Under the pieces are notes generated by a model, which did not search any database, was not told the origin of the DNA, and saw only the letters and a list, made by a program, of their open reading frames with translations. Below, one piece after another: positions 6,977 through 63,716 of a DNA stretch of 64,000 nt. Numbering within the stretch: the stretch's first letter is position 1; each line of letters begins with the position of its first letter. The position numbers and the translations under genes are program-made. The stretch comes from Hydrolagus colliei (lineage: Eukaryota): the NCBI GenBank assembly GCA_035084275.1, contig CM068763.1, positions 7,874,001-7,938,000 of the forward strand, given 5' to 3'.

Positions 6977-7078
6977 CTGATCGGCAGGGCTGATCGGCAG
7001 GGCTGGCAGGGCTGATCGGCAGGGCTGATCGGCAGGGCTGGCAGGGCTGATCGGCAGGGCTGATCGGCAGGGCTGATC
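6977..7078. repeat. GC-rich minisatellite (CTGATCGGCAGGG 13-mer and CTGGCAGGG 9-mer)
   Basis: Unit order 13,13,9,13,13,9,13,13 plus partial, read directly. Confidence 0.95.
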
Positions 7079-7734
7079 TGTTGGGAGCTGGGCCTGTATC
7101 CCTCCCTGTACCGCACACCGCTAATCACAGCTGCACAACACACTGACTGAGAGCTAGCTTTGATCTTAACACACCGTTGAGGCTTTCATGTTAGCTGCAG
7201 GCAGTAGAAATATTACACGTTTGCCTTTTATTCAGTGGATGAAAGGGCTGGAGTTTGCAGAGAAGGAGACCAGTATTAAGTTTTAGACCTCTATTCTCAA
7301 GTAAAATGGGAAACATGCGCAAATCCTTTGTAAACTCTTTGTGTGTGTGTGTGTGCGTGTGTATAAAAAGGGTGACAGAATTGTGTGTGTGCATTGTCGC
7401 TAGTTATTGCTGAAGAAGGCCAGTGTGTTGTTGGGTGGGAGAGGGGGGGGTGGGGGTGGTGTTGGGGGCAGTGGAAATCCGCCAAGTACAGTCTAATCTG
7501 CATGAGTCAATGGCAATGGGAGGAATGGGGTCAAGATGGTTTGGGGCTGAGCTCAATGATGAACCTGGGGCTCACTGTTCACAGCTGGCCAGAGACGGGT
7601 GTACGATGAGAGCGAAATGTATCCACCCAGTCTTAGTCTGCAGGACTAGTTCAATTTATAATTTTAGGTTTTGCTGAATTGTCAAAAATTAATACAGTGT
7701 TTTACAATAACAACAAAATGCATATGTATTCCGC

Positions 7735-8656
7735 CTTTCATGTCCGACATCGAATCGTGGACGAGGGACAACTTTTTGCAATTGAACGTGAATAAGACCG
7801 AGGCCCTCCTGATTGGCTCAAGCCAGCGCCTCCGCACATCGGGCGCTGCCAGCCTCAACATCCAAGGCTGCACTCTCCACCTCACAAAGCCAATCAGGAA
7901 CCTCGGCATCATGTTCGATCAAAAACTTTCCTTCCTCCTCCACATCCGCGCCTTGACCGGCACCGCCTATTTCCATCTGCGCAACATTGCCAGGCTCCGC
8001 AACTATCTTACCCCCCGCGCTGCCGAAACACTCGTGCATGCATACATTACCTCATGGCTGGATTACGGAAATTCTCTCCTAGTCGGCCTCCCCAGTTCCT
8101 CCATTCATAGGCTGCAGGCCATCCAAAACTCTGCAGCCCGTGTACTATCCTGCACCCGCCTCCGTGACCACATAACCCCCACCCTCTCCCGTCTCCACTG
8201 GCTCCCCATCCTCCAGAGGATCGAATTTAAGATCCTCGTCCTCACCTATAAGGCCTTACACGGCCTTGCCCCATCCTACCTAGCCAATCTCTCCCCCTAC
8301 ATGCCCACCCGGACCCTCCGTTCAACAGGACTTGGCCTGCTCCAAGCCCCCCGCCCGAACCGCCCCACCATCGGAGGCCGGGCCTTCAGTTTCTCCGCTC
8401 CCACCTTATGGAATGCCATCCCTCAATCCCTCCTTTTCGCCTCATCCCTTTCCTCTTTCAAGGCCGATTTGAAGACTTTCCTCTTCGATCGTGCCTTTTG
8501 TTCCACCCCGAACTCTTTTACCTCCCCTTCGTGTTTCACCCCTTCCCAAACACTCCCCTCCCAGCTCGGGTCACACGCCTCTTGTTTAGCGCCTTGGGAC
8601 GTCCTCCCGACGTGAAAGGCGCTATATAAATGTAAATTGTTGTTGTTGTTGTTGTT
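7735..8656 (+). mobile_element. L2-clade LINE, 5'-truncated; ORF2 C-terminal part still open
   Basis: ORF 7671-8615 (SDIESWTRDNFLQLNVNKTEALLIG...HITPTLSRLHWLP..RIEFKIL) typical of L2 ORF2; ends in a 3' hairpin and (TTG)n tail; same family as 39660-41270. Confidence 0.92.
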
Positions 8657-10650: not shown

Positions 10651-10721
10651 CTTGGCTGGCTCCTGCTTCCTGCTCACCCCTCGTCCCCTCCGCTCCACCA
10701 TCGGCCTCCGCGCTTTCAGAC

Positions 10722-11299
10722 NNNNNNNNNNNNNNNNNNNNNNNNNNNNNNNNNNNNNNNNNNNNNNNNNNNNNNNNNNNNNNNNNNNNNNNNNNNNNNN
10801 NNNNNNNNNNNNNNNNNNNNNNNNNNNNNNNNNNNNNNNNNNNNNNNNNNNNNNNNNNNNNNNNNNNNNNNNNNNNNNNNNNNNNNNNNNNNNNNNNNNN
10901 NNNNNNNNNNNNNNNNNNNNNNNNNNNNNNNNNNNNNNNNNNNNNNNNNNNNNNNNNNNNNNNNNNNNNNNNNNNNNNNNNNNNNNNNNNNNNNNNNNNN
11001 NNNNNNNNNNNNNNNNNNNNNNNNNNNNNNNNNNNNNNNNNNNNNNNNNNNNNNNNNNNNNNNNNNNNNNNNNNNNNNNNNNNNNNNNNNNNNNNNNNNN
11101 NNNNNNNNNNNNNNNNNNNNNNNNNNNNNNNNNNNNNNNNNNNNNNNNNNNNNNNNNNNNNNNNNNNNNNNNNNNNNNNNNNNNNNNNNNNNNNNNNNNN
11201 NNNNNNNNNNNNNNNNNNNNNNNNNNNNNNNNNNNNNNNNNNNNNNNNNNNNNNNNNNNNNNNNNNNNNNNNNNNNNNNNNNNNNNNNNNNNNNNNNNN
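10722..11299. other. Assembly gap (578 N)
   Basis: Run of N; both flanks are L2 3'-region sequence. Confidence 1.
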
Positions 11300-13028
11300 G
11301 CTCTCTCCTTCCCCTCTTTTAGATCACATCTGAAGACCCTCCTCTTCGACCACACTGATGGTCACCTCCTCCCTCCCCGCGGCTCGGCACCCTGACGCTT
11401 CCCAGAGTTAAGTGCTCTGTGTGAAGGGCACTGTATAAATGCAAGTTGTTGTTGTTGTTGAATCCTCCACTTCCCCACCACCCACCCCACTTTCACATGT
11501 GCCTGCGGCTTCACTCAAACCTGCCATTCTGGGAGGAAAAGGACAAAATCTTGCATTTTCCAGCAGCTCCGTGGAATGTGTGAAAGCGTTTCACACATTC
11601 TGTGAAGTGCCAGTACAGAGAGCGCAGGTTTGCGTCAGCAACAATTCAACCCACAAGTCAACAAGTCAATGACAGATTGGAGGAGGAGAGAGGGAACTGG
11701 AAATAAATATTCAGTTTGTTGGGTCTCAAATTTCAAAAAAGAAAAAAAAAACGTGGAAGGAAACCAGCCACGGGAGGGAGAGACGAGGGGGAGACTTCAC
11801 AGTGAAGCCATTCAGCGTGATAAAGTTCACGCTGCATTGCATTATCCTCCTCGCCTGGAGGTGCTAACTCGCGCTGCAGGACGCCCCGCACGTCTCGGTT
11901 GAGGCGTTACTGCCGGCTGAGCTCAGCCAGTTCAGGTGGACGTGAAAGATGTGGTGTTGTTACGATGGGTGCGGAGTGACGGGTTACAGACCTCGCTGCA
12001 CTAATGGATCGGGATAAAATTTATACCAAACAGTTACAATTGCTCTCCGCCTTGCCAGCACCGAGATAGACATTCCTGTGGAATCAGCAGAGTGGCTTAG
12101 ATTGGTCACAAGCTGCCCGTTTGCTCCCCAGCTCATCTGATATCCCATCACTCTGGAGCTTAATAGCTGGGGAAAGGCTTTACCAAAGCCAGCGCCCGAG
12201 ATGGCTTTTCCATATGTCCCCAAACTGCCTCTCGGCCTCCCTGCCTCTGCCACAGTTCCTGGGACAGACACACCAGCTGTCCTATTGAGAGCATTAAATC
12301 TCTGGGAGAGGAGAATTCGGAGACAAGGAAGTTGTATAACACACTCAGTGATATTTTGATTTGTTCCGAGCTGGGAGTGGAGGAGGAAACTGCTGCTTTA
12401 GTGCACCTACTCACAGAGAGAGAGAGAGTTTAACAGCTTAAATAGTGCAGAAGTGTGAAATTCCACCTTGTCTCACCCCGTGGGATCATTTTGTCTTACA
12501 ATTTAAAGATTGTGCAGAATTGTGGCAAAATTTCTCAGTTTAATCTTAATCTTGACACCGGTTCTTTTTCTGTGAAGGCTTTTGAAACGTCTTAATGATG
12601 TGATAAGGCGCTATATCAAATGCAAAGATGATTAATATTATTATCAATAACAAGAATTGAACAAAAGCAGCTTTAAAATTTAGATTTTTTCCCCAGATTC
12701 TGTATCATCTTAAATTTTAAGGCATTAACTGGCTGACTTTCCCTCTCACCGCTTAAGAGTTACCTAGGACAGTAATTCGCCAATGTAGTTTAGTAAGGAT
12801 GTAGCTGTAAACAAACCGAGATCAAGTAACTCAGGGTAGAAGCTGGAAAAGTGACTTGAGTCAGAGGCTGGAAGAAAGTGTAAAGTAGCTATGAGATGCT
12901 GACACTCAGGTCATTCAGTCAGGGCCACAGACATCTGGCTTTTGTTAAATGGTCAGCAAAGTGAATGATAAGAAATGGAGAGGCTGGAACCGGGCCTCCA
13001 CTGAGCTGTTTGTGGAATTTGATTCCAC

Positions 13029-38388: not shown

Positions 38389-39072
38389 TAAAAAAATACA
38401 ATTTTCGTAAGGTATTTTCCTACAGCACGCAGAGAGAGGCACAAAAACAAGTCAGATTATGACATTGCAAATAATCAACCACACAACCGCAGGAAACCAG
38501 CAATCAAACACACTGGAGTAGGGGATAATTTGTAACATTTGATAATTATTAGCAACAATAATGTCTGCCTTATGATATTCTACTTAACATTAATATTCTA
38601 CTCAGATGTTCACAGTTAAATGACCACAAGGTGGTGGTGCCCCTCCCATTGAGGTTTCGTTCTGAATGGAGAGAATTATTACTGTACTCGGGTAATTGGC
38701 AGTCAAGTTTACTTTGATGCTTTCAGTTTTATTTCTGGTTGAAAATCTTCTGAACCAGGTGAAGCCCATTCTGTTTCCAAGGCCTTGATTTCCATCCTTG
38801 TGGTCCTTGTGTCATGGTAAATCTAGGTCAGCCACCCAGCCACCACTACCACAACAACAACAACTCACGTGTCGCCATTCATTAGGAGGGACACAACGAC
38901 TCTGTCTGGCGTCTCTCTGCTGTTTGCTGCACAATAATCATCCTCGCTTTTCATATAAATATCAAAAATGTTGCACAAGCATTTCACAGGGAATTGCTGT
39001 CAAATGTAGTGGACTGTGTACTTCTAGGCACATACAACTGTCACTTGGCACACAGTAATTCCCCACGAACAT

Positions 39073-39105
<33 letters not shown>

Positions 39106-39659
39106 CAGTACATACATAGAGAGAACAGCCAATTTTATCTGGGGGAATGTTTGCCAGGATACTGGTCAAAACTATTCTTTTCGTGTAATGTGCCATGGGA
39201 TCATTTAACATCCACCTGAACAGGCAGAGGGGATCTCGGCTTAATACAGGGGTGACCAACCTCGTCAGGAGTGTCCCGCGAGGCCAACAGGAAGCTTCCC
39301 TACGGGTATAGGTAAGTCGTTTGTGTGTTTTCAGTTCTTTTCTTAATTGTAGATTTCTTGATTGATGCCAAAATTAATGAAAGATTCAATCAAGACATTT
39401 TTTTTTGGTGGGGGGGTAGTGGGGCTGGGGGAGGGATGGGGGAAAGGGGGGGAATAAGCAAAGGTTGACCACCACTGGTTTAGCATCTCATTCAACAATA
39501 CGACACTGTCCCCAGGTATCGCTCTGGAGCTTCATCCGAGACTGTGAACTCAAAGTCCCCCTTAAATTGGGGCTCCCGCCCACAATCTTTTGAACCAGCA
39601 GTAAGATTGCAAGCAGCTAGCTAGCTGGCCATACCGTGTTTTGATCGTATGAGTTTGTG

Positions 39660-41270
39660 GGTGACAACAAATTAACAACAACAAATTACACTTATAAAGC
39701 GCCTTTCACGTCGGGAGGACGTCCCAAGGCGCTGCACAGGAGGCGTGTGACCTGAGCTGGGAGGGGAGTGTACGGGAAGGGGTGAAACACGAAGGGGAGG
39801 TCGAAAAATTCGGGGTGGAACAAAAGGCACGGTCGAAGAGGAAAGTCTTCAAACCGGCCTTGAAAGAGGAAAGGGAAGAAACGAGACGGAGGGATTGGGG
39901 GATGGAATTCCATAGGGTCGGAGCGGAGAAACTGAAGGCCCGGCTTCCGATGGTGGGGCGGTTCGGGCGGGGGGCTTGGAGCAGGCCAAGTCCTGCTGAA
40001 TGGAGGGTCCGGGTGGGCTTGTAGGGGGAGAGTAAATTGGTTAAATAGGGCGGGGCAAGGCCATGTAAGGCCTTGAAGGTGAGGACGAGGATCTTGAACT
40101 CGATCCTCTGGAGGATAGGGAGCCAGTGGAGACGGGCGAGGGTGGGGGTTATGTGATCGCGAAGGCGGGTGCGGGATAATACACGGGCTGCAGAGTTTTG
40201 AATGACCTGCAGCCTGTGAATGGAGGAACTGGGGAGGCCGACGAGGAGAGAGTTTCCGTAGTCCAGCCTTGAGGTGATGTATGCGTGCACGAGTGTTTCG
40301 GCAGCGTGGGGGATAAGATAATTGCAGACCCTGGCAATGTTGCGCAGGTGGAAGTAAGCGGTGCCAGTCAAGGCACGGATGTGGGGGAGGAAGGAGAGTT
40401 TTTGGTCGAACGTGATGCCGAGGTTCCTGACTGGCTTTGTGAGGAGGAGAGTGCAGCCTTGGATGTTGAGGCTGGCAGCGCCCGATGTGCGGAAGCGCTG
40501 GCTTGAGCCGATCAGGAGGGCCTCGGTCTTACTCACGTTCAATTGGAGGAAGTTGTCCCTCGTCCAGGACTCAATGTCAGACAGACATGCTGTCAGAACA
40601 TCGATGGTCTGGGGGTTGAGGGATGAGGCAGAAAGGTACAGCTGGGTGTCGTCCGCATACATGTGGAAATTTACCCCGTGTTTGCGGATGACATCGCCCA
40701 GAGGGAGCGTATAAATGGTGAAAAGGAGGGGGCCGAGGACAGAGCCCTGAGGGACACCGTGAGAAACTGTGCGGGGGTTTGAGAAGAAACCGTTGGAAGA
40801 TACAAAGTGTAGGCGGTGGGTCAGGTAGGAATGGAACCAGTCAAGGACTGTGCCTTGAAGGTTGAGGTGGGAGGAAAGACGTTGGAGGAGGATGGTGTGA
40901 TCGACTGTGTCGAACGCAGCAGACAGGTCAAGGAGGACGAGGAGGCAGAGGGAGCCGTGGTCACAGGCAGTTAGGATGTCATTTGTAACCTTAACCAGGG
41001 CAGTTTCTGTGCTGTGAGCAGGGCGGAAACCTGATTGGAGGGGTTCAAGGAGTGAGTGAGTTGAAAGGAAAGAGCGGAGCTGGGAGGCAACCACTCTTTC
41101 AAGGACCTTGGATAAAAACGGGAGGTTGGAGATGGGTCGATAGCTTGATGGTTGCGACGCAACAAGGGAGGGTTTCTTCAGGATAGGGGTGATGGTGGCT
41201 GTTTTAAGGGAGGTAGGGACAGTGCCTGAGGAGAGGGAAAAGAAAGGTTAATGGTGTCAGAAATGAAGTG
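39660..41270 (-). mobile_element. Young L2-clade LINE, 5'-truncated, with intact RT frame (open from about 41245 to 39706)
   Basis: YRPISNLPFLSKVLE, LDLSAAFDTVDH, GVPQGSVLGP, YADDTQLY, HITPTLARLHWLP; 3' hairpin and (TTG)n tail; endonuclease domain absent. Confidence 0.95.
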
Positions 41271-41306
41271 ATTATAGGCCAGAGTACGCTGAGCGCTCGG
41301 CTTCCT

Positions 41307-41638
41307 TCACAATCCTATATTCCCGTCATCTAAATGCTTCTCAGGCACAGGCGGAGGCTCCTCCTCCTCCCCTCTCTGAGCCGCGGCCTGAGGTTCTATC
41401 TGAGCCCCTTTATTTTTCTGCTTCACCACTTTTGCATAAATCGCCATGTTTTCCTGTGGCTTGTTTACTTCCACTGATTCCCCGCTGCCCGGCCTCCCAT
41501 CAGCTGCAGCTGTAAAGCTTTGCGCTGAGCTGGCCTGGCCCGGGCTGGGACCAGGCTGCAGTTCCGGCTCCCACTTGTTCACGTTGACTTCGCTGACGAC
41601 TTCATATAGATCATCCTCAGCTTCCAGCGTCTTGTCCC
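41307..41638 (-). CDS. PAG1/LIME1-like transmembrane adaptor, coding exon 4 (GDKTLEAEDDLYEVV...IYAKV...EEEEPPPVPEKHLDDGNIGL*)
   Basis: Acceptor ttctgttcacacag|GG, phase 1; extends ORF 41307-41582; YEVV and YAKV tyrosine motifs and an acidic PPPVP motif similar to PAG1. Confidence 0.8.
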
Positions 41639-41650
41639 CTGTGTGAACAG

Positions 41651-42050
41651 AAACAACAACAACAACAAAATTACATTTATAGAGCGCCTTTCATGTCGGG
41701 AGGTATGTGCCAAAGTGCTGAACGGTCAAGTTGGGACCCGAGCAAGAGGGAGGGGCAGGATAGGGGGGGAGGGGAGGGAGAGATGGAGGGAATTAGGAAG
41801 AAGTTGGGAGGGCACAATCGAAGAGGAGAGTCTTGAGACTGGCCTTGAAGGAGGCAAGGGAGGGAGTGAAGCAAAGCGACTGTGGGATGGAGTTCCAGAG
41901 TGTGGGGCCAAAAACGCTGGAAGACCGTCCACCGATGGTAGTGTGGGTCAGGCGGGGGATATGGAGCAGACCAGAGCCCGCTGAATGGAGGGGGCGGGCA
42001 GTTTCATGGGGACAGCAGGTCAGAGAGGTAGGAGGGGGCAAGGCCATAAA
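41651..42050 (-). mobile_element. L2 3' fragment filling most of intron 3 of the adaptor gene
   Basis: GLAPSYL..PTLWNSIPQSL-type sequence, hairpin, and a (TTG)n tail ending about 12 nt before the acceptor. Confidence 0.88.
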
Positions 42051-42087
42051 AACAAGGGACATTAAAATATCATCCCATGTACATTAC

Positions 42088-42151
42088 CGTGTAAACGTGG
42101 AAGCTCTCCATTGGGACTTGTGTCTGTGATCGGAGTGGGAAGGCTCTTCTT
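42088..42151 (-). CDS. PAG1/LIME1-like adaptor, coding exon 3 (KKSLPTPITDTSPNGELPRLH)
   Basis: Acceptor ttcttcattccttcatttag|AAG, donor ACG|gtaatg; 64 nt, phase 0 in and phase 1 out, matching both neighbours. Confidence 0.7.
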
Positions 42152-42603
42152 CTAAATGAAGGAATGAAGAATATGTCAGTTTCTCTGTGTTTTAACTGCT
42201 AGTAATCAGTTCACGAGTCACAGGATTAATGGTCTGGTTACAGGCTATGCATCTCCCTGCAACAAACTCAGGTAAAATCCTTACTTGTTTCTGAATATTT
42301 TGTTAACCATTAAGTGAGAGGTATTGGGTCGCTGGGTTAAACCTGCATCAAGTTTGTTTAGCTCATTGGATTTGAGTTACTGGGGTCCCGAAGATTGGTT
42401 TTTTCCAATCTGCGCCAAATACTCTGGAATAAGATAGGAAAGGTCCCTCTAGGGGAAGACTGCGTGCTGAGACAAATTTAAACCAGATATTCCTCTCTGT
42501 GGAACTCTCAGTAATTTGTTTTGGAGACTCTTATGCACGGTGCTAGACCAAAAAAAAATCAAATAACTGAACGATTTAATTTAGCCAACAGTGAGTCACT
42601 CAC

Positions 42604-42652
42604 CACAGACACAAGCTCAGGTCTCCCTCTTCTTCCTTGTTTTCCTATAAGT
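42604..42652 (-). CDS. PAG1/LIME1-like adaptor, coding exon 2 (R-LIGKQGRRGRPELVSV)
   Basis: Acceptor ctctgctcatcag|A, donor GTG|gtgagt; 49 nt, phase 2 in and phase 0 out; basic juxtamembrane stretch. Confidence 0.7.
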
Positions 42653-42679
42653 CTGATGAGCAGAGACAGTACTCGTCAA

Positions 42680-43310
42680 TGTTAGCAATTACATCCTCTC
42701 TGAGATCAGTGCTCCCTCTGCCTCCTTTTATACCTGGACCTGCCTGTTGCATTCAACACACTTGACCATCCTCCTCCACCGCCTCTCCTCATTTATCCAC
42801 CTCAGTAGGACCAAACTTACCTGGTTTGAGTCCTACCTAACTAACCATCTAACTAACTTTGTTCCCAAAAACATTCTTTCCTCCCACCCTGCCTGGTCAC
42901 CTGTGGTTCCGGCTCCACTGGCTTTCCATATAAAATGGATCAACTTCAAGATCCTCACACTCATCTACAAACCCCTTCAAAGGCACGGCACCTCTCTAAC
43001 CTAATTACTCCCCACTCCACCGCCTGCTGCCTCTTCTCGGCTGGCTTCGGCCTCCTGCTTGTCCTCTCCCCTCCACCATCAGCGGCCACACTTTCAGCCA
43101 CTACAACCTGAAGCTTTGAAGTCTTCCCTCAATCCCACCACCTTGCCTGCTCCTTCCCCTTTTTCAGATCATGCCTGAAATCTTTCCTCTTCGACCGCTC
43201 TTACAGTTACCTCTTCCCTCCCTCCTGGCTCAGTGTCAGGCTCCGCCACTGTTAAGCCTATTGTGAAGCACTCCAAGAGGCCGCCCTGTGTAAACGCAAG
43301 TTGTTGTAAC
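42680..43310 (+). mobile_element. Degraded L2 fragment
   Basis: TILLHRLSS..LTWFESYL, INFKILTLIYK and an L2 tail. Confidence 0.75.
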
Positions 43311-43535
43311 AAAGTATTAAGTCAATAAGGTAGTTAGAGGGCTGGCGTTTCAGCCGAGGCAAAGTTACGGTGAAACCAGTTCCAAAAAAGTCTGAACAAG
43401 GTGGGAAAATTCCAATTATGGATCTAATTTGCTAAATGTACTCAGTTTAATGAGCAACTTATTGACAGCTAAACCTCCCTCCAGACCAGGATTAGACACC
43501 AGGGCTTTGCACTGAAATCCCAGGATTTACATTAC

Positions 43536-43663
43536 CTCTTGCAGAAAGAGCAGCCAACTGTGAGCAGAATGAGAAGCAGCAAGATGGAGATGGCGAGCCA
43601 GAGCTGAGGGAGGTGTAACACATCAGGTATGTTCTCCACCCAACTCTCAGCAACAGGAGCCAT
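43536..43663 (-). CDS. PAG1/LIME1-like adaptor, coding exon 1 (MAPVAESWVENIPDVLHLPQLWLAISILLLLILLTVGCSFCK)
   Basis: Acceptor ttgttttccag|G (exon starts at 43699), ATG at 43663, short ectodomain, one hydrophobic helix, CxxC (CSFC) followed by KR; donor AG|gtaatg, phase 2. Confidence 0.82.
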
Positions 43664-43741
43664 GAGGCCAGGCTTGGGAGTGACCAAACAGGTGGAAACC
43701 TGGAAAACAAGATATAGAGTTGGTCTGACGAATAAATCTTT

Positions 43742-44100
43742 TGTGGAGTCCTGTAGGTAGCTCAGTGGTTAGTTAAGAAGCCCTCGGAAAAAAACACTAA
43801 TAAATTGATAATTTCAAAGAACGGCTTTGTAGAACACTGCTATGTGCAATTGGCTACCACATTTCACCCACATATTTACGGTCAATTCACTTTACAGCAT
43901 ATCCAGGGAAGCGCTTTGACACGTCTAGAAGACATGAAAAGCGCTGTATAAAATGCAAGGATTATTATTCTTATTGCTAGCTTAATAATAATAATCCTTG
44001 CATTTGATTACAGCACCTTATCGCGTCTTTGCAATGTCTCAAAGCGCTTCACGGAATATACCTAAAGTGAATGGACACAAAACGTACATTTTGTGAGCGA
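43742..44100. mobile_element. Two SINE copies tail-to-tail (+ 43742-43968; - 43983-44100)
   Basis: Family head, body and tail on +, then a reverse-complement tail. Confidence 0.8.
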
Positions 44101-45103
44101 ATCTTGCGTTTTTGATGGTAAATATCTCAAAGCTCTTCAAAGGTACTGCTGTTAGTGAAGTGTTTACATGTGAGCAAATGCAGCAGCCAAGTTTGCACCT
44201 AGCAACACACAACCTTCAAGCGAGCGACCAATTTATCTGGAGGCTTTGGGAGTCTCCTCTTTTGGGGGAAACTTCCTTGTCTTACCAAGAGAGCTGTAGA
44301 CCTTTTAAACATCCACCTGTCGATTCCTCGGACCACACAGCTCTCCTCAAGCCTTTAGCTGCAGGGTCAGTCAGCCTCCACTGTGAAACGTTTGCGGAGC
44401 GGGATTAGTTCAGCTCTTGGTGCTGTACTTTTGGAGTCTCCCACTGTAATATGTGATTTATAAAGGTGATATGAGATGACTGGACTCACCTCTGTTAACT
44501 TACTCACTGTGCACCGGAGGGAGGGGGGTGGAGGTTACACCCTGTTCGGCAGGTCAGAGTGCAAACACAGTCCAGTAGTTGTGAAGGGTGAGAGAGGTCA
44601 CTCATACCATGGGATGGAGAGAGCAGGGGAAGTGGGATGAGAATAAAGAGTTCCAACAGCGTGCAGCAATTGAGCACCCAGTAACTTTGTGATTTACCGA
44701 AATTTAGTGAGGAAATAACCTTTGTACTGTACTTTGTTACTGACTCCACCCGACGGGAAATTCCTTCAGAGCAGGTGCGGGGGAAGGGAACCCTGCAGAA
44801 GTCGCAGAACAAACAGGACAAATCACAGGCAGACAAATGTAACCTGTGATAATGACAGAGTAAAGGTCTTTCGTGTTTCTGACAAGAGAGAGTGAAAGTT
44901 GCCAGCCCGTGCCTGCCAACTAGCCGCTGTAACTCACAGATAGAGCTGAGAACACTATCTTGCACAGAGATATAATCACAATCATAATCATGGTTAATCA
45001 ATTTCCAAGAAAGGGGGTCAATGATCAGAGCCACTCACAGAGACCCCACTAACCCGGCTGCCCGCCCGGTTGCTGGCGCTATTTTTAACAGCTGTGTACT
45101 CAC

Positions 45104-45200
45104 CTCTGCTGTCTCTCTGCAATGCCAACACACACTGCAGAGCTCACGAAGAATGAGCCAGGTTTGGGGGAGTAGTTTAAGGAAGTGTCGGTGACTGCAC
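45104..45200 (-). other. Candidate non-coding first exon of the adaptor gene (donor GAG|gtgagt at 45103; another at 44489)
   Basis: Consensus donors in unique sequence upstream of the 43699 acceptor; 5' end unknown. Confidence 0.35.
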
Positions 45201-48200
45201 CTTAAGTCAACAATGACTGGAGAAGTTAGCTTGTCAGCAATGTGTCTCTACTTCCTCTGTTCTTTCAGCACTGAGCTACCTGGCTCACAGACCTGACGAG
45301 TATTCAGTGTCAAGCTTTGATGTTGCACAAAGTTTTGAAATGTTAACAGTTTCCTTCCAACAACGACAAAGTTACATTTGTATAGCTCCTTTCACGCCGA
45401 GAGGACGTCCCAAAGACACTGGACTGTCAGTATTTCATACCCGAGGGTTTTGAGATGGGATTTAACGAGGCTAGGGAAGCAGCCAAGTGGAGAGATAGCG
45501 GGGTTGAGGGCTTGAGGGCGGAGTGGCAGAATGTTCGCCCGCTGATAGTGGGGATGTGGGATGGGGGACGTGGAGCAGGCCAGAGCCCACTGAGTGGAGG
45601 GAGCAGGCGTGTTAGTAGAGCGTTAGGAGGTCCCAAAGGTAGAGTGGGGCGACGCTGTGGAGGGCTTTAAAGGCGAAGACCAGGTTCTTGAATTCAATCT
45701 TCTGGATTACCTGCCAGGTGTGCGACCAGATTATCTTCCAGATGTTTTTCTTATGTTCCTGTCACGGCAGACATGCCCGGTGTGTTTGAACAGCCAGAAC
45801 TTGATAATTAGTTCAAGGGTCAAATTATTTGGCAAGCTCAAGATTGTTTGTGAAGGGAACAAATTTCATCAGCTAAATATTTTATTGTTCCTCAATTGTA
45901 CATTGGTGGCTCATTAAAGTGAAGGACTGCAGGGATTGGTTTCTGTAGTCAGCGAGTATCTGCCATATGCGGAAACCAATCACCGAGTTTAAAGTGTATG
46001 CAAACCAAACTGATAGAGTTCCACACATTCCACCCACATATGGAAATTCATGAGATATTTATTGGATTGCAATGTGCACTTCTCTCCCCGGTGGGACATA
46101 CCCTGATTCCAGAGACTATTAGATGCAGTTTCATAAGAGTCAAGGTTAGCGGACACCAGTGTTTGTATAACAGCACAGCAGGAGTCTAACCAGCTAAAGT
46201 CTAACCAACACCCCCACCCTCCACCTCTCCGAGTTGCTGTCCCCCTATGAATCTCCCTGCCCCCTCCTTTCAGTGGGCTCCGGTCTGCTCTATGTTCCCC
46301 GCCCGACCCGCCCTACCATCAACATTCAGGCTTTCGGCCTCTGTGCCCCCACACTCTGGAACGCCATCCTACAGTCCCTTCTCCTCACTCCCTCCCTTGC
46401 TTCCTTCAAGGCCGGTCTCAAGAAGTGTGAAAGGCGCACTTTAAGTTTAATTTTGTTGTTTGTTGCTGTAAAACCACGTAGCTTACCATTGAAGGCACTT
46501 GGATCACCCCCCTTAGGTTAGGGTCTGTTTTATATCATTAACAGGAACTGAGTAAGAAGAGTAAGAAGAGTAAGAAGAGTCTCTGTCTGCCAGGCCTACC
46601 AATGATCCAGCCTGGGATGAGCTGTCATCAGCAGTGCCCTGGAGTAGTGGCTCAGGAATTGGATAGCCAAGACTGCCAGGGAGGATGGGCTCGATTCTAA
46701 CATTCTATTGTCGAACATGGAGCCAGTTCAGCTTCAAGGTGCCTCCCCCGCACCGAGTATAATCACTAGTTGGTCATTTGGCACCTGACAAGCGCTGGTT
46801 TGATCCTTGACTAGATGGATGGTAGGTACCAGGAACTCCCTGTGAGCTTCATTGGGAGCAACACAGCTCAGCGTGAAATGGGTGAGGGCACTGCCACCAT
46901 CTACCTGCCAGCAGCTCTGCCACATGTCCCTTCCCATTCAGCGATGGTTCTGCCAGTTGGACATGCATTATTGAGAAGTACCTGTTTCCCTCTCTGTAAG
47001 CCATTCCAGGTGCTGGACATATGAACACATGTTCATCAACTCAGACTCCAGGTAAATAGCATCCTTCCAGCGCCTTGGGTCATCCTCCTGACGTGAAAGG
47101 CACAAGTGTAATTTTGTTGTTGTTCTAGCCTCAGCATTTCCTTATCAGTTATCTGACGTCAACTGCCTTCAGCATGTGAGAACATTTACTGGATAACTTG
47201 TGAAGTCCAAATCCAAAGGTGTGCACCAGGCTTACTCAGCTCCAGCTACTTAATTTCAAGTCCCTATGCGAAGGGCTTTGGCAAATACTACGCCTACCAT
47301 GGGGCCAATTCTGCCAGGGTGTTCCAGGGTGCTCAGCAATAGGTAATTGAAGGCCGGAACCCTGCACAATGTCATGTTATTGTCACTGAGAATCATCTTC
47401 CAGCTCTACCAGGTCCGATACTGTGGGACTTAGATACACACTAAAGTCTATTGTAAATTAAAGTCGATTGGCGGATCGCTTTTATGGGGGTAATAATTCC
47501 TTAGACTCCAAGTAAATTTAAAAAGTGGTCAGTCAATCCATGATTGTTTGTGGGGATACCTCTGTGCGCAACTGGCTGCCGCGTTTTGTCCCCAAAACAC
47601 AGTCAATTCACTTTACAGTATATTGTGTGAGCTGTTTTAATACGTCCCAAATACATGATAAGATGATATATCAAATGCAAGGATTATTATTATTACTACA
47701 TTGCACTGCACTCTTAAGGCAAGTTCATGGAACTGGATTGATAACAAAATTGGCATTATTGTAAAAAGCAAAGAAATTTGGAGAAGAAAGGGAAAATAAT
47801 TTTTCAGGTTTGACCATTTTTCAGAACTGAAATAACACAATTTTGATTCATGCTGAAACTCACATATTGAGGATTAATTGGACTGGGACTTAGAAGTGAA
47901 AAAGTAATTGCTGTATGTATGTGTTATGAGATTGTGAAAGGCCTGGGCCTCTAGGGTACAGTATAGACACTGTTATAGATCATTGCGCAAGTATTTACCA
48001 GGAAATGTTGTCTTCTGGCTGGTCAATGAGTCTTTGTGTAAAATGTTTTTTCACACGTGGGAATTGAGTCGGAGATGGTTGGGTTGAAGCTGGCACTGGG
48101 TTGAGCAGGAGGCGAGTCGGGTCATTAGACTGTTCGGGTGCTGCGGTTGGGATTGCTGGAGAGGCAGTGCTCCCAGGTTGGTCTTCATTAAAGTTCTAGG

Positions 48201-62531: not shown

Positions 62532-63716
62532 ATAGATTCATAGATTCATGGAATTTTACGGCACAAAAGGAGGCCATTCGGCCCATCTAGTCTGTGCCGG
62601 CTCTTTGAAAAGAGCGATTCAATCCCACTGCCCTGCCCGCTCCCCATAGCCTAATAGACCTGTTCTCCCTAAATAAAGATCTAATTCCCTTTTAAAAGTT
62701 GTTATCGAATCAGCCTCCACCACCTTTTCAGGCAATGCATTCCAGATTCGAACAACTCGCTGAGTGAAAAAATTTCTCCTCAGCTCCCCTCTACTTGGCC
62801 TTGAAACTATTTTAAATCTGTGACCACGAGTCACAGATTCGCCCACGAGTGGAAATAGTTTTTCTCTATTTGCCCTGTCGAAACCCCTCATGATCTTATA
62901 AACCTCTATTAGGTCTCCTCTCAATCTTCTCTGCTCCAGAGAGAATAACCCTAGCCTATCTAGCCTCTCCTCATAGCTGAAGTCCCTCAATCCTGGCACC
63001 ATCCTGGTAAATCTTCTTTGTACCCTTTCCAATGTCTTCACATCCTTTCTGTAGTGTGGTGACCAGAATTGAACACAGTATTCCAGCTGAGGCCTCACCA
63101 AACTTTTATAGATGTTAGTCAGCACTTCCTGACTTTTGTACTCTATACCCCTATTTATAAAGCCTAGTATCCCATATGCCTTCTTAACAGCCTTGTCTAC
63201 CTGTCCTGCCACCTTCAACGAGTCACTAACACAAATCCCCAGGTCTCTCTGTTCCTTCACACCATTTAAAATTGTACTATCTAGCCTATATTGCCTCCCT
63301 TCATTTCTTCTCCCAAAATGCATCACCTCACACTTCTTTGCATTAAACTTCATCTGCCATGTGTCTGCCCACTTTACCAATTTGTCTATATCCTCTTGCA
63401 GATGGCTACTATCCTCCTCACTATTTACTATTCTCCCTAACTTAGTGTCATCTGCAAACTTGGAAACTGTACTCCGTACACCCAAGTCCAGATCATTGAT
63501 GTAGATTACAAACAGCAATGGTCCCAAAACTGATCCCTGTGGCACACCACTGCTCACTTCCCTCCAGTCTGAAAAACAGCCGCTCACTACAACTCTGTTT
63601 TCTGTCTCGCAGCCAGTTGTGGATTCACGCTGCCACTGTCCCTTTTACGCCATGGGCCTTTAATTTCCTAATAAGTCTCTCATGTGGCACTTTATCAAAT
63701 GCCTTTTGAAAGTCCA
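62532..63716 (-). mobile_element. CR1-clade LINE 3' part with open RT/C-terminal ORF (62619-63587)
   Basis: SGVPQGSVLGPLLFVIYINDLD, KFADDTKLG, LVRPQLEYCVQFWSP, RRLRGDLIEVYKI, FFTQRVVRIWNALP; 3' end with an ATGAATCT-type tandem repeat. Confidence 0.93.

Follow-up and report, generated by a model that had tools for sequence, protein, structure and literature searches.

The window analysed here is a stretch of 64,000 nucleotides of the Hydrolagus colliei genome (contig CM068763.1 of assembly GCA_035084275.1, positions 7,874,001 to 7,938,000 of the forward strand), in which a minus-strand gene for a small transmembrane adaptor protein is followed, about 35 nucleotides (nt) after its stop codon and on the same strand, by a 5'-truncated copy of an L2-type long interspersed nuclear element, or LINE (39665..41272 in window positions, the 5' edge being approximate). 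A first-pass annotation of the sequence had proposed that a splice from exon 3 of the adaptor to a cryptic acceptor within this copy, with the new exon starting at 41225, would fuse the membrane anchor of the adaptor to a reverse transcriptase (RT). The geometry of the resulting 586-amino-acid (586-aa) fusion is real and its cause is ordinary. Most probably the element is a decaying LINE copy in the 3' untranslated region (UTR) of the gene, with an acceptor that comes from the codons of its own second open reading frame (ORF2), and any use of 41225 would be unselected splicing noise. The geometry of a fusion gene is present and the tests that define that class are not passed, so that we class the locus as a LINE copy and not as a fusion isoform; an insertion with a chance in-phase acceptor had also been named at the outset as the simpler explanation, and it is the one that the evidence favours.

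When the phase-1 end of adaptor exon 3 (42151-42088, 64 nt, minus strand) is joined to 41225, the frame runs without an internal stop as far as 39706, and on this point the gene model and the translation bear out the initial proposal. The would-be alternative last exon is the open ORF2 remnant of the copy (39706..41225, minus strand, 505 codons), which contains the RT motifs with their catalytic aspartates and the C-terminal region. The candidate 3' splice site in front of it (41226..41253, minus strand) consists, as had been described, of a branch-like motif, a long pyrimidine tract and a CAG: the motif CATTAAC lies at 41253-41247, with the branch A at -23, 19 of 20 positions in the tract are pyrimidines and the CAG occupies 41228-41226. 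Judged by crude features (pyrimidine count, YAG and branch motif), this is the best YAG among the 58 AGs of the copy, seven of which pass a crude acceptor filter, two of these seven being in frame for a phase-1 donor; over both strands of the window, a YAG with at least 18 pyrimidines in 20 positions occurs at 17 sites. As a local site, the acceptor at 41225 is unusual and credible.

The origin of the site can be traced to the coding sequence of the element. It is made of the ORF2 codons for a conserved I-N-x-S-L-x-x-G stretch, on a sense strand that is 65% pyrimidine over the length of the copy; the branch-like motif is supplied by the Ile-Asn codons, and the acceptor AG always falls in phase 1 because it is formed where a codon with A as its last letter precedes the conserved Gly. 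Distant relatives of the copy (42-54% identical) were drawn from 23 metagenome loci, of which 12 were translated around the junction, eight entered the alignment and seven the junction count, the rest being partial, frameshifted or too distant. In the seven that have an open frame across the junction, this stretch is the conserved I/V-I/V-N-x-S-x-x-x-G region of ORF2; a branch-like motif at -18 is found in two of them and an AG at the same phase-1 position in two. ORF2 codons on a pyrimidine-rich strand incidentally produce the branch motif, the AG and the phase, and only the match with the phase of the upstream intron is left to chance, at about one in three.

A 5-nt insertion close to the acceptor, which had been said to break the ORF2 frame and to lengthen the pyrimidine tract, does both. 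It is an imperfect tandem duplication at 41237..41241, shifts the branch motif from -18 to -23 and raises the count of pyrimidines from 17 to 19 in 20; with the five letters removed, a site with 17 of 20 pyrimidines and the branch motif at -18 is still there. A search of sequencing runs with 41100-43800 listed a single run, X1, and none of RNA; for comparison with the family we aligned it to positions 39300-45300 at 85% likeness and treated it as DNA (its contigs cover introns and exons alike, at a depth of about 50). Twenty-nine family contigs of X1, amounting to 41% of the summed depth, are without the five letters at 41237, the remaining 59% showing no gap and not being open to inspection, and the contig of the locus itself covers 41213-41641 gap-free. 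Among the X1 differences considered here (40 of 117, together with 15 of 2478 joints, all of them between repeats), none of high share falls on the AG or the branch motif, and the neighbouring positions 41221 and 41162 stand at 97-100%.

Apart from the splice site, the adaptor frame past the stop codon continues (41309-41242, minus strand) into the ORF2 frame of the first codons of the element, where the 5-nt insertion interrupts it. Before that insertion, read-through of the stop would have yielded a full adaptor-RT protein; since the stop is at its ancestral position, we regard this shared frame as a second one-in-three coincidence and not as a lost fusion gene. The idea that the stop arose as a late mutation in a formerly fused frame was rejected, as it lies six residues past the conserved end motif of the adaptor and the orthologues stop 0-13 residues past it.

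The copy belongs to a family with the habits expected of a LINE: it is interspersed and of high copy number, 5'-truncated and biased towards 3' ends, with many 3' relics in the window. We take it to be of the L2 type from the label given in the first-pass annotation and from its motifs, the relatives at 42-54% identity carrying no family names. Elements of the L2 clade end in a 3' stem-loop followed by a short tandem-repeat tail and not in poly(A), and the 3' end of the copy (39665..39760, minus strand) has a predicted stem-loop (z -2.45; 3 of 200 shuffled sequences fold as well) and a short TTG-repeat tail. No target-site duplication of at least 5 nt was found at the edges of the LINE, the 4-nt candidate that is visible there being one that could be due to chance. 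The summed X1 depth over the copy lies between 0.85 and 6.8 million, rising from 5' to 3', and is 578,094 at 41237, with single-copy flanks at about 50; taken as an order-of-magnitude guide and not as a copy number, this depth indicates a very abundant family with some 10^4 copies reaching the acceptor site. With so many carriers and under assumed genic fractions, a genome could plausibly contain hundreds of look-alikes that lie in genes and in phase.

Target-primed reverse transcription that stops early is established LINE biology, and in the course of events that we favour it would have copied an abundant L2-type LINE and landed it, in the same orientation, some 35 nt past the stop codon of the adaptor. 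The copy would since have ridden in the 3' UTR, decaying roughly neutrally; the phase-1 end of exon 3 would be the one-in-three coincidence mentioned above, and the gene, to judge from its orthologues, would normally splice exon 3 to exon 4 for a 190-aa adaptor. The element is probably included in the pre-mRNA and mRNA of the adaptor because the first canonical AATAAA downstream of the adaptor stop (38728..38733, minus strand) lies beyond it, no AATAAA or ATTAAA being found between the stop and 38733.

Comparison of the copy with its family gives the evidence on selection. The 22 best-supported differences in the 505 codons (1.5%) are equally divided between synonymous and non-synonymous changes (11 each); 8.3 synonymous changes would be expected under neutrality with the same mutation classes (P=0.16), and eight of the 22 are attributable to CpG decay. 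The corresponding dN/dS ratio (omega) is 0.61, with a confidence interval of 0.26-1.41; an omega of 0.2 or less is rejected (P<0.01) and 0.3 is marginal (P=0.08). As a control we used a sister copy of the same family (7741-8655, plus strand), which is more strongly 5'-truncated and 90.7% identical, and which has the family letter at all 14 of the 22 sites that it covers. The control works: of the other differences between the two copies, 38 of 63 are synonymous where 19.8 are expected (P=2e-6), an excess that reflects constraint on the source elements while they were active. Among the changes in the copy, D21V and R408H alter residues that are identical in all seven relatives with a letter there, D21 being aligned with an Asp of human L1 ORF2p, and R300C alters a position that is R or K in seven of eight; the ten changed columns that can be scored have a conservation of 0.57, the average being 0.61 (P=0.30). 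Strong constraint on the ORF2 remnant is rejected, and neutral decay fits the copy in what is a test of low power, with which weak constraint would also be compatible.

The probability that no stop codon would have arisen in the frame is 0.58-0.61 for 22 substitutions, and the sister copy, as the first-pass annotation had remarked, is open too (over the 290 codons compared), so that the open frame is unremarkable; with assumed indel rates of 3-10% the probability is 0.10-0.36, and it would go down to 0.01-0.16 if the true number of differences were 40.

How much of an RT the copy encodes is a separate matter. The domain is of the type found in retrotransposons without long terminal repeats (Pfam RVT_1, E 2e-36), its best matches among solved structures are to L1 ORF2p, with the aspartates aligned, and a search of the ESM Atlas returned generic chordate RT clusters only. 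The description of this RT as intact goes too far: the core has its catalytic aspartates and covers positions 2-204 of the 205 in the profile, but what should precede it is lacking. The fragment begins at about residue 503 of human L1 ORF2p, without the endonuclease, the tower and most of region 0, so that RT motifs 1-7 are not preceded by the N-terminal extension (tower/PIP helix and region 0). The relatives extend at least 330 aa upstream of the junction, and one may reach the end of an endonuclease domain; of the two scanned with Pfam, one has a weak Exo_endo_phos_2 match (E 8.5e-4, below the cut-off). A motif of the type LD-P-(I/V)-PT, about 35 aa upstream of the junction in all seven well-aligned relatives, is absent from the copy. 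The core of active L1 starts at residue 238 (PMC10830420). Alanine mutants of R2 in the motifs before the RT (region 0) are described as still extending an annealed primer and as binding RNA poorly (PMC4117753), so that the loss of region 0 need not abolish polymerase activity. For the deeper truncation present here, we consider RT activity doubtful.

The gene that would lend its anchor to the RT has four coding exons, all with GT-AG junctions, and encodes 190 aa. Exon 1 has its ATG at 43663 and codes from 43663 to 43536, ending in phase 2 (the exon may be taken as 43536..43699, with an acceptor at 43699 and 12 in-frame codons upstream of the ATG); it encodes the transmembrane (TM) helix and the CxxC and aligns with the shark and ray orthologues. 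Exon 2 (42652-42604, 49 nt, phase 2 to 0) rests on the gene model and aligns weakly with the orthologues, exon 3 carries the donor that could join 41225, and the coding part of exon 4 (41638-41307, stop at 41309-41307) supplies both tyrosine motifs and a conserved proline-rich end, all of these exons being on the minus strand. The protein thus laid out has a short N-terminus, a single TM helix, a CxxC and a low-complexity tail, with two tyrosines in all, both encoded by exon 4. Exon 4 alone matches Pfam PAG (E 5e-6) with 26.2 bits, the curated cut-off being 27; one of the five orthologues scanned exceeds the cut-off (29.1) and the others score 15.9-24. A consensus-like donor at 45103-45098 (minus strand), some 1.4 kb before the first coding exon, may belong to a non-coding first exon.

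Orthologues were found in Narcine and Heterodontus by exhaustive search, in Pristis, Cetorhinus and Mustelus with an N-terminal profile and as two isoforms in Carcharodon by cluster look-up, together seven proteins of 215-246 aa from six elasmobranch species, annotated as 'uncharacterized'. In all seven, the two tyrosine motifs and the proline-rich end of exon 4 are conserved, and six of them have, like the protein of the window, a CxxC after a single TM helix. Two of the four exhaustive-search matches to exon 4 (P0001 and P0004) were dropped as low-complexity chance matches, word-index searches with exon 4 gave no match among proteins of 65-209 aa or 192-2000 aa, no bony-vertebrate match was found, and a literature search on this adaptor in cartilaginous fishes found no paper. 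By its sequence, the host gene is a PAG1/LIME1-like transmembrane adaptor conserved in sharks and rays and so far uncharacterised. Judging from the paralogy of the regions around PAG1 and LIME1, it could represent a third ohnologue in this family. None of the seven orthologue proteins contains an RT, in searches that covered proteins of 176-2000 aa and whose matches included no close relative of Hydrolagus colliei; this absence of a long fused form is weak evidence, the matches being all elasmobranch and diverged and a sharing of the insertion not being established. The two orthologues that were aligned have about 23 residues more than this gene between the parts encoded by exons 3 and 4, before the first tyrosine motif, and because intron 3 is in addition mostly L2 relic, an exon or part of one may have been lost here between 42088 and 41638.

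Several observations weigh against the reading of the copy as an ordinary insertion in decay, and they deserve to be set out together. The candidate site, with 19 of 20 pyrimidines, surpasses all four native acceptors (13-16 of 20), including the exon-4 acceptor with which it would compete (14 of 20 and no yUnAy motif), and the latter adjoins the tail of an older L2 relic that may have replaced its branch region. The sole indel listed in the copy is confined to the 45 nt or so that precede the acceptor; it makes the site better and leaves the would-be exon untouched. The point estimate of omega is below 1, values of 0.5-0.7 fitting slightly better than 1.0, and the 22 sites behind it are the best-supported ones only, some of which may be polymorphisms or subfamily changes. 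Finally, a polymorphic insertion had been named beforehand as a finding that would speak against the fusion, and none was seen in X1: the insertion and the 5 nt are not segregating in this one run, which possibly comes from the source individual, because the LINE junctions and the 5 nt are carried by contigs whose depth (52.9 and 53.4) is that of single-copy sequence. Over five single-copy contigs, X1 and the window differ at 10 of 3326 letters, and the two may be from the same individual; X1 cover is low at 43320-43721. Two of the differences between X1 and the window lie in exon 4 (41359 and 41560) and both change the amino acid (E/V and L/P).

The explanation that survives best beside decay and chance, and that we consider possible at rather long odds, is that 41225 is used measurably as an alternative 3' splice site, defining a cryptic last exon with an unselected RT sequence, any effect consisting in a reduced amount of the adaptor or in a decoy. 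The L2 tail in intron 3 would have left the exon-4 acceptor beatable, and the product would be an anchor without signalling tyrosines joined to an RT fragment. The strength of the 41225 site relative to the native acceptors, the open frame and the lack of a canonical poly(A) signal before the element all speak for this, as does the statement in bioRxiv 10.64898/2026.01.30.702498 that cryptic last exons rich in transposable elements and poorly conserved are common in normal vertebrate transcriptomes. Nonsense-mediated decay is not triggered by a stop codon in the last exon, and the fused mRNA would escape it because its stop lies there. Against measurable use, the acceptor of exon 4 is rich in U, lies 413 nt upstream and is the first to be transcribed, and heavy skipping of exon 4 should be costly, its motifs being conserved across cartilaginous fishes. 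The splice from exon 3 to 41225 would remove both tyrosine motifs, and a fusion that would keep them through a donor inside exon 4 was rejected, none of the seven weak internal donors being in phase 1.

Very improbable, in our estimate, is a domestication under way, in which the TM helix and the CxxC of a selected isoform would hold the L2 RT fragment at the cytosolic side of the membrane, the 5-nt insertion would have been selected for sharpening the acceptor, and the product might trap L2 RNA or ORF2p in a dominant-negative manner, or provide RNA:DNA hybrids for innate sensing. We give just as little credence to the fuller version, in which a regulated 41225 acceptor, sharpened by the 5 nt, would lead to a translated 586-aa protein with a palmitoylated anchor and an endonuclease-less L2 RT, in an early stage of domestication under weak constraint (omega about 0.5), which at the membrane of immune cells would capture L2 ribonucleoproteins or supply RNA:DNA hybrids, with tyrosine signalling turned off. 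What can be said for such schemes is that 505 codons are open and retain the catalytic aspartates, that the point estimate of omega is 0.61, that the 5-nt insertion lies where it does, that the R2 region-0 alanine mutants cited above extend an annealed primer (PMC4117753) and that LINE-derived last exons under constraint exist, namely NUP42-L1 and USP4-L1 (PMC12129022). Against them stand the rejection of an omega of 0.2 or less (P<0.01), the mutation of invariant residues and the absence of 330 aa or more of the ORF2 protein, among them the endonuclease, the tower and most of region 0, where the active L1 core begins at residue 238 (PMC10830420); moreover, the copy has diverged by only some 1.5% from its family, while the exons of Lyosin and L1-RFX5 have ceased to coincide with annotated repeats (PMC12129022). 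The removal of a read-through product would be an alternative reading of the 5-nt insertion. For the proposal of an exonised, membrane-tethered RT there remain a site that is strong by crude features and an omega interval that reaches down to 0.26, but no positive support: purifying selection has left no signal, ORF2 codons account for the acceptor, the RT is without its N-terminal extension and the annotated orthologues are unfused.

That the gene model is wrong at exons 2 and 3 and the phase match an artefact is hardly credible. These exons do align only weakly to the orthologues, which are longer by some 23 residues ahead of the first tyrosine motif; against this, every intron is bounded by GT-AG, the reading frame continues as far as exon 4, both ends align well, and any exon preceding exon 4 would be in phase with 41225 because exon 4 itself needs a phase-1 donor.

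The adaptor gene has on one side a protein kinase gene, represented by an exon at 27.6-28.3 kb, and on the other, at 51.5-52.5 kb, a PAQR-type (HlyIII) gene; a FAM110 gene lies at 4.3-5.4 kb. All three are on the minus strand and were identified with Pfam, and they are probably FAM110D, PDIK1L and PAQR7. The PAQR7 and FAM110 proteins of the window had no entry in the protein collection searched. An older L2 3' relic (41658..42047, minus strand as is the gene; 69% identity, E 6e-36) fills most of intron 3 with its tail adjoining the exon-4 acceptor, and an older antisense relic (42661..42890, plus strand) ends about 7 nt before the exon-2 acceptor; as both acceptors adjoin such relics, their branch regions appear to be element-derived. 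A second, different LINE fragment (62619-63644, minus strand; 25% identical to the RT discussed here), probably CR1-like by its motifs, is open over 341 codons and has an RVT_1 match, long open LINE fragments being common in this region. An assembly gap (a run of N) at about 10720-11300 lies inside a repeat relic, and a short tandem array with a GC-rich unit of about 14 nt occupies approximately 6990-7080 (plus strand), upstream of the sister copy.

Among known systems, the copy is most like the 5'-truncated L2/CR1-group LINE copies of cartilaginous fishes, such as the dominant LINE of the elephant shark (PMC1845163), in being an RT-only 3' fragment with a pyrimidine-rich sense strand and a short-repeat tail, in its high abundance and in its many relics in the window; it differs in its position 35 nt past a stop codon, its in-phase acceptor and its private 5-nt insertion, and it is likened to the group and not to a named family. 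The host protein resembles PAG1/LIME1-type adaptors (Pfam PF15347) in its short N-terminus, its single TM helix with a CxxC, its low-complexity tail with tyrosine motifs and its PAG matches, but it is much shorter than the 428 positions of the profile, of which about 100 match. The proposed architecture, with host exons in frame with a LINE reading frame as alternative terminal exon, is that of NUP42-L1, USP4-L1 and Lyosin (PMC12129022), whereas the present case involves ORF2 and its RT, is predicted from DNA sequence and has no detected constraint. Ruminant BCNTP97 (as PMC12129022 describes it) also joins a host protein to a domain of a LINE enzymatic protein; there, the domain is the RTE-1 endonuclease, the gene is duplicated and the fusion is established, and here the domain is an RT and the fusion hypothetical. 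In CD274-L2A, which gives soluble PD-L1 (PMC6877088), an L2 likewise provides an alternative end to the transcript of a membrane immune regulator and removes its signalling part, but that element is intronic and the TM domain is lost, while here the fusion would retain the TM helix, lose the tyrosines and gain 505 aa of ORF2. Were 41225 used, the nearest class would be the cryptic last exons of bioRxiv 10.64898/2026.01.30.702498, which that report portrays as TE-rich (rich in transposable elements), non-conserved and lineage-restricted terminal exons; those are intron-derived and were found in transcripts, and this one is predicted and lies inside the UTR of the normal last exon. A literature search that had subscription papers outside its cover found no paper describing a host-LINE RT fusion isoform, and the conservation of ORF2 fusions is, according to PMC12129022, yet to be elucidated.

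If the fusion were true, it would add an RT to the short list of LINE-host fusion proteins, and an RT tethered to the membrane would be an unexpected means of defence or signalling. The more general lesson is a cautionary one: this family carries a ready phase-1 acceptor just before its RT, and with some 10^4 copies, in-frame look-alikes of a host-RT fusion are to be expected many times per genome, so that such look-alikes need evidence from transcripts and from selection. By the same token, the family would offer a testable set for how often the RT exons of LINEs are spliced.

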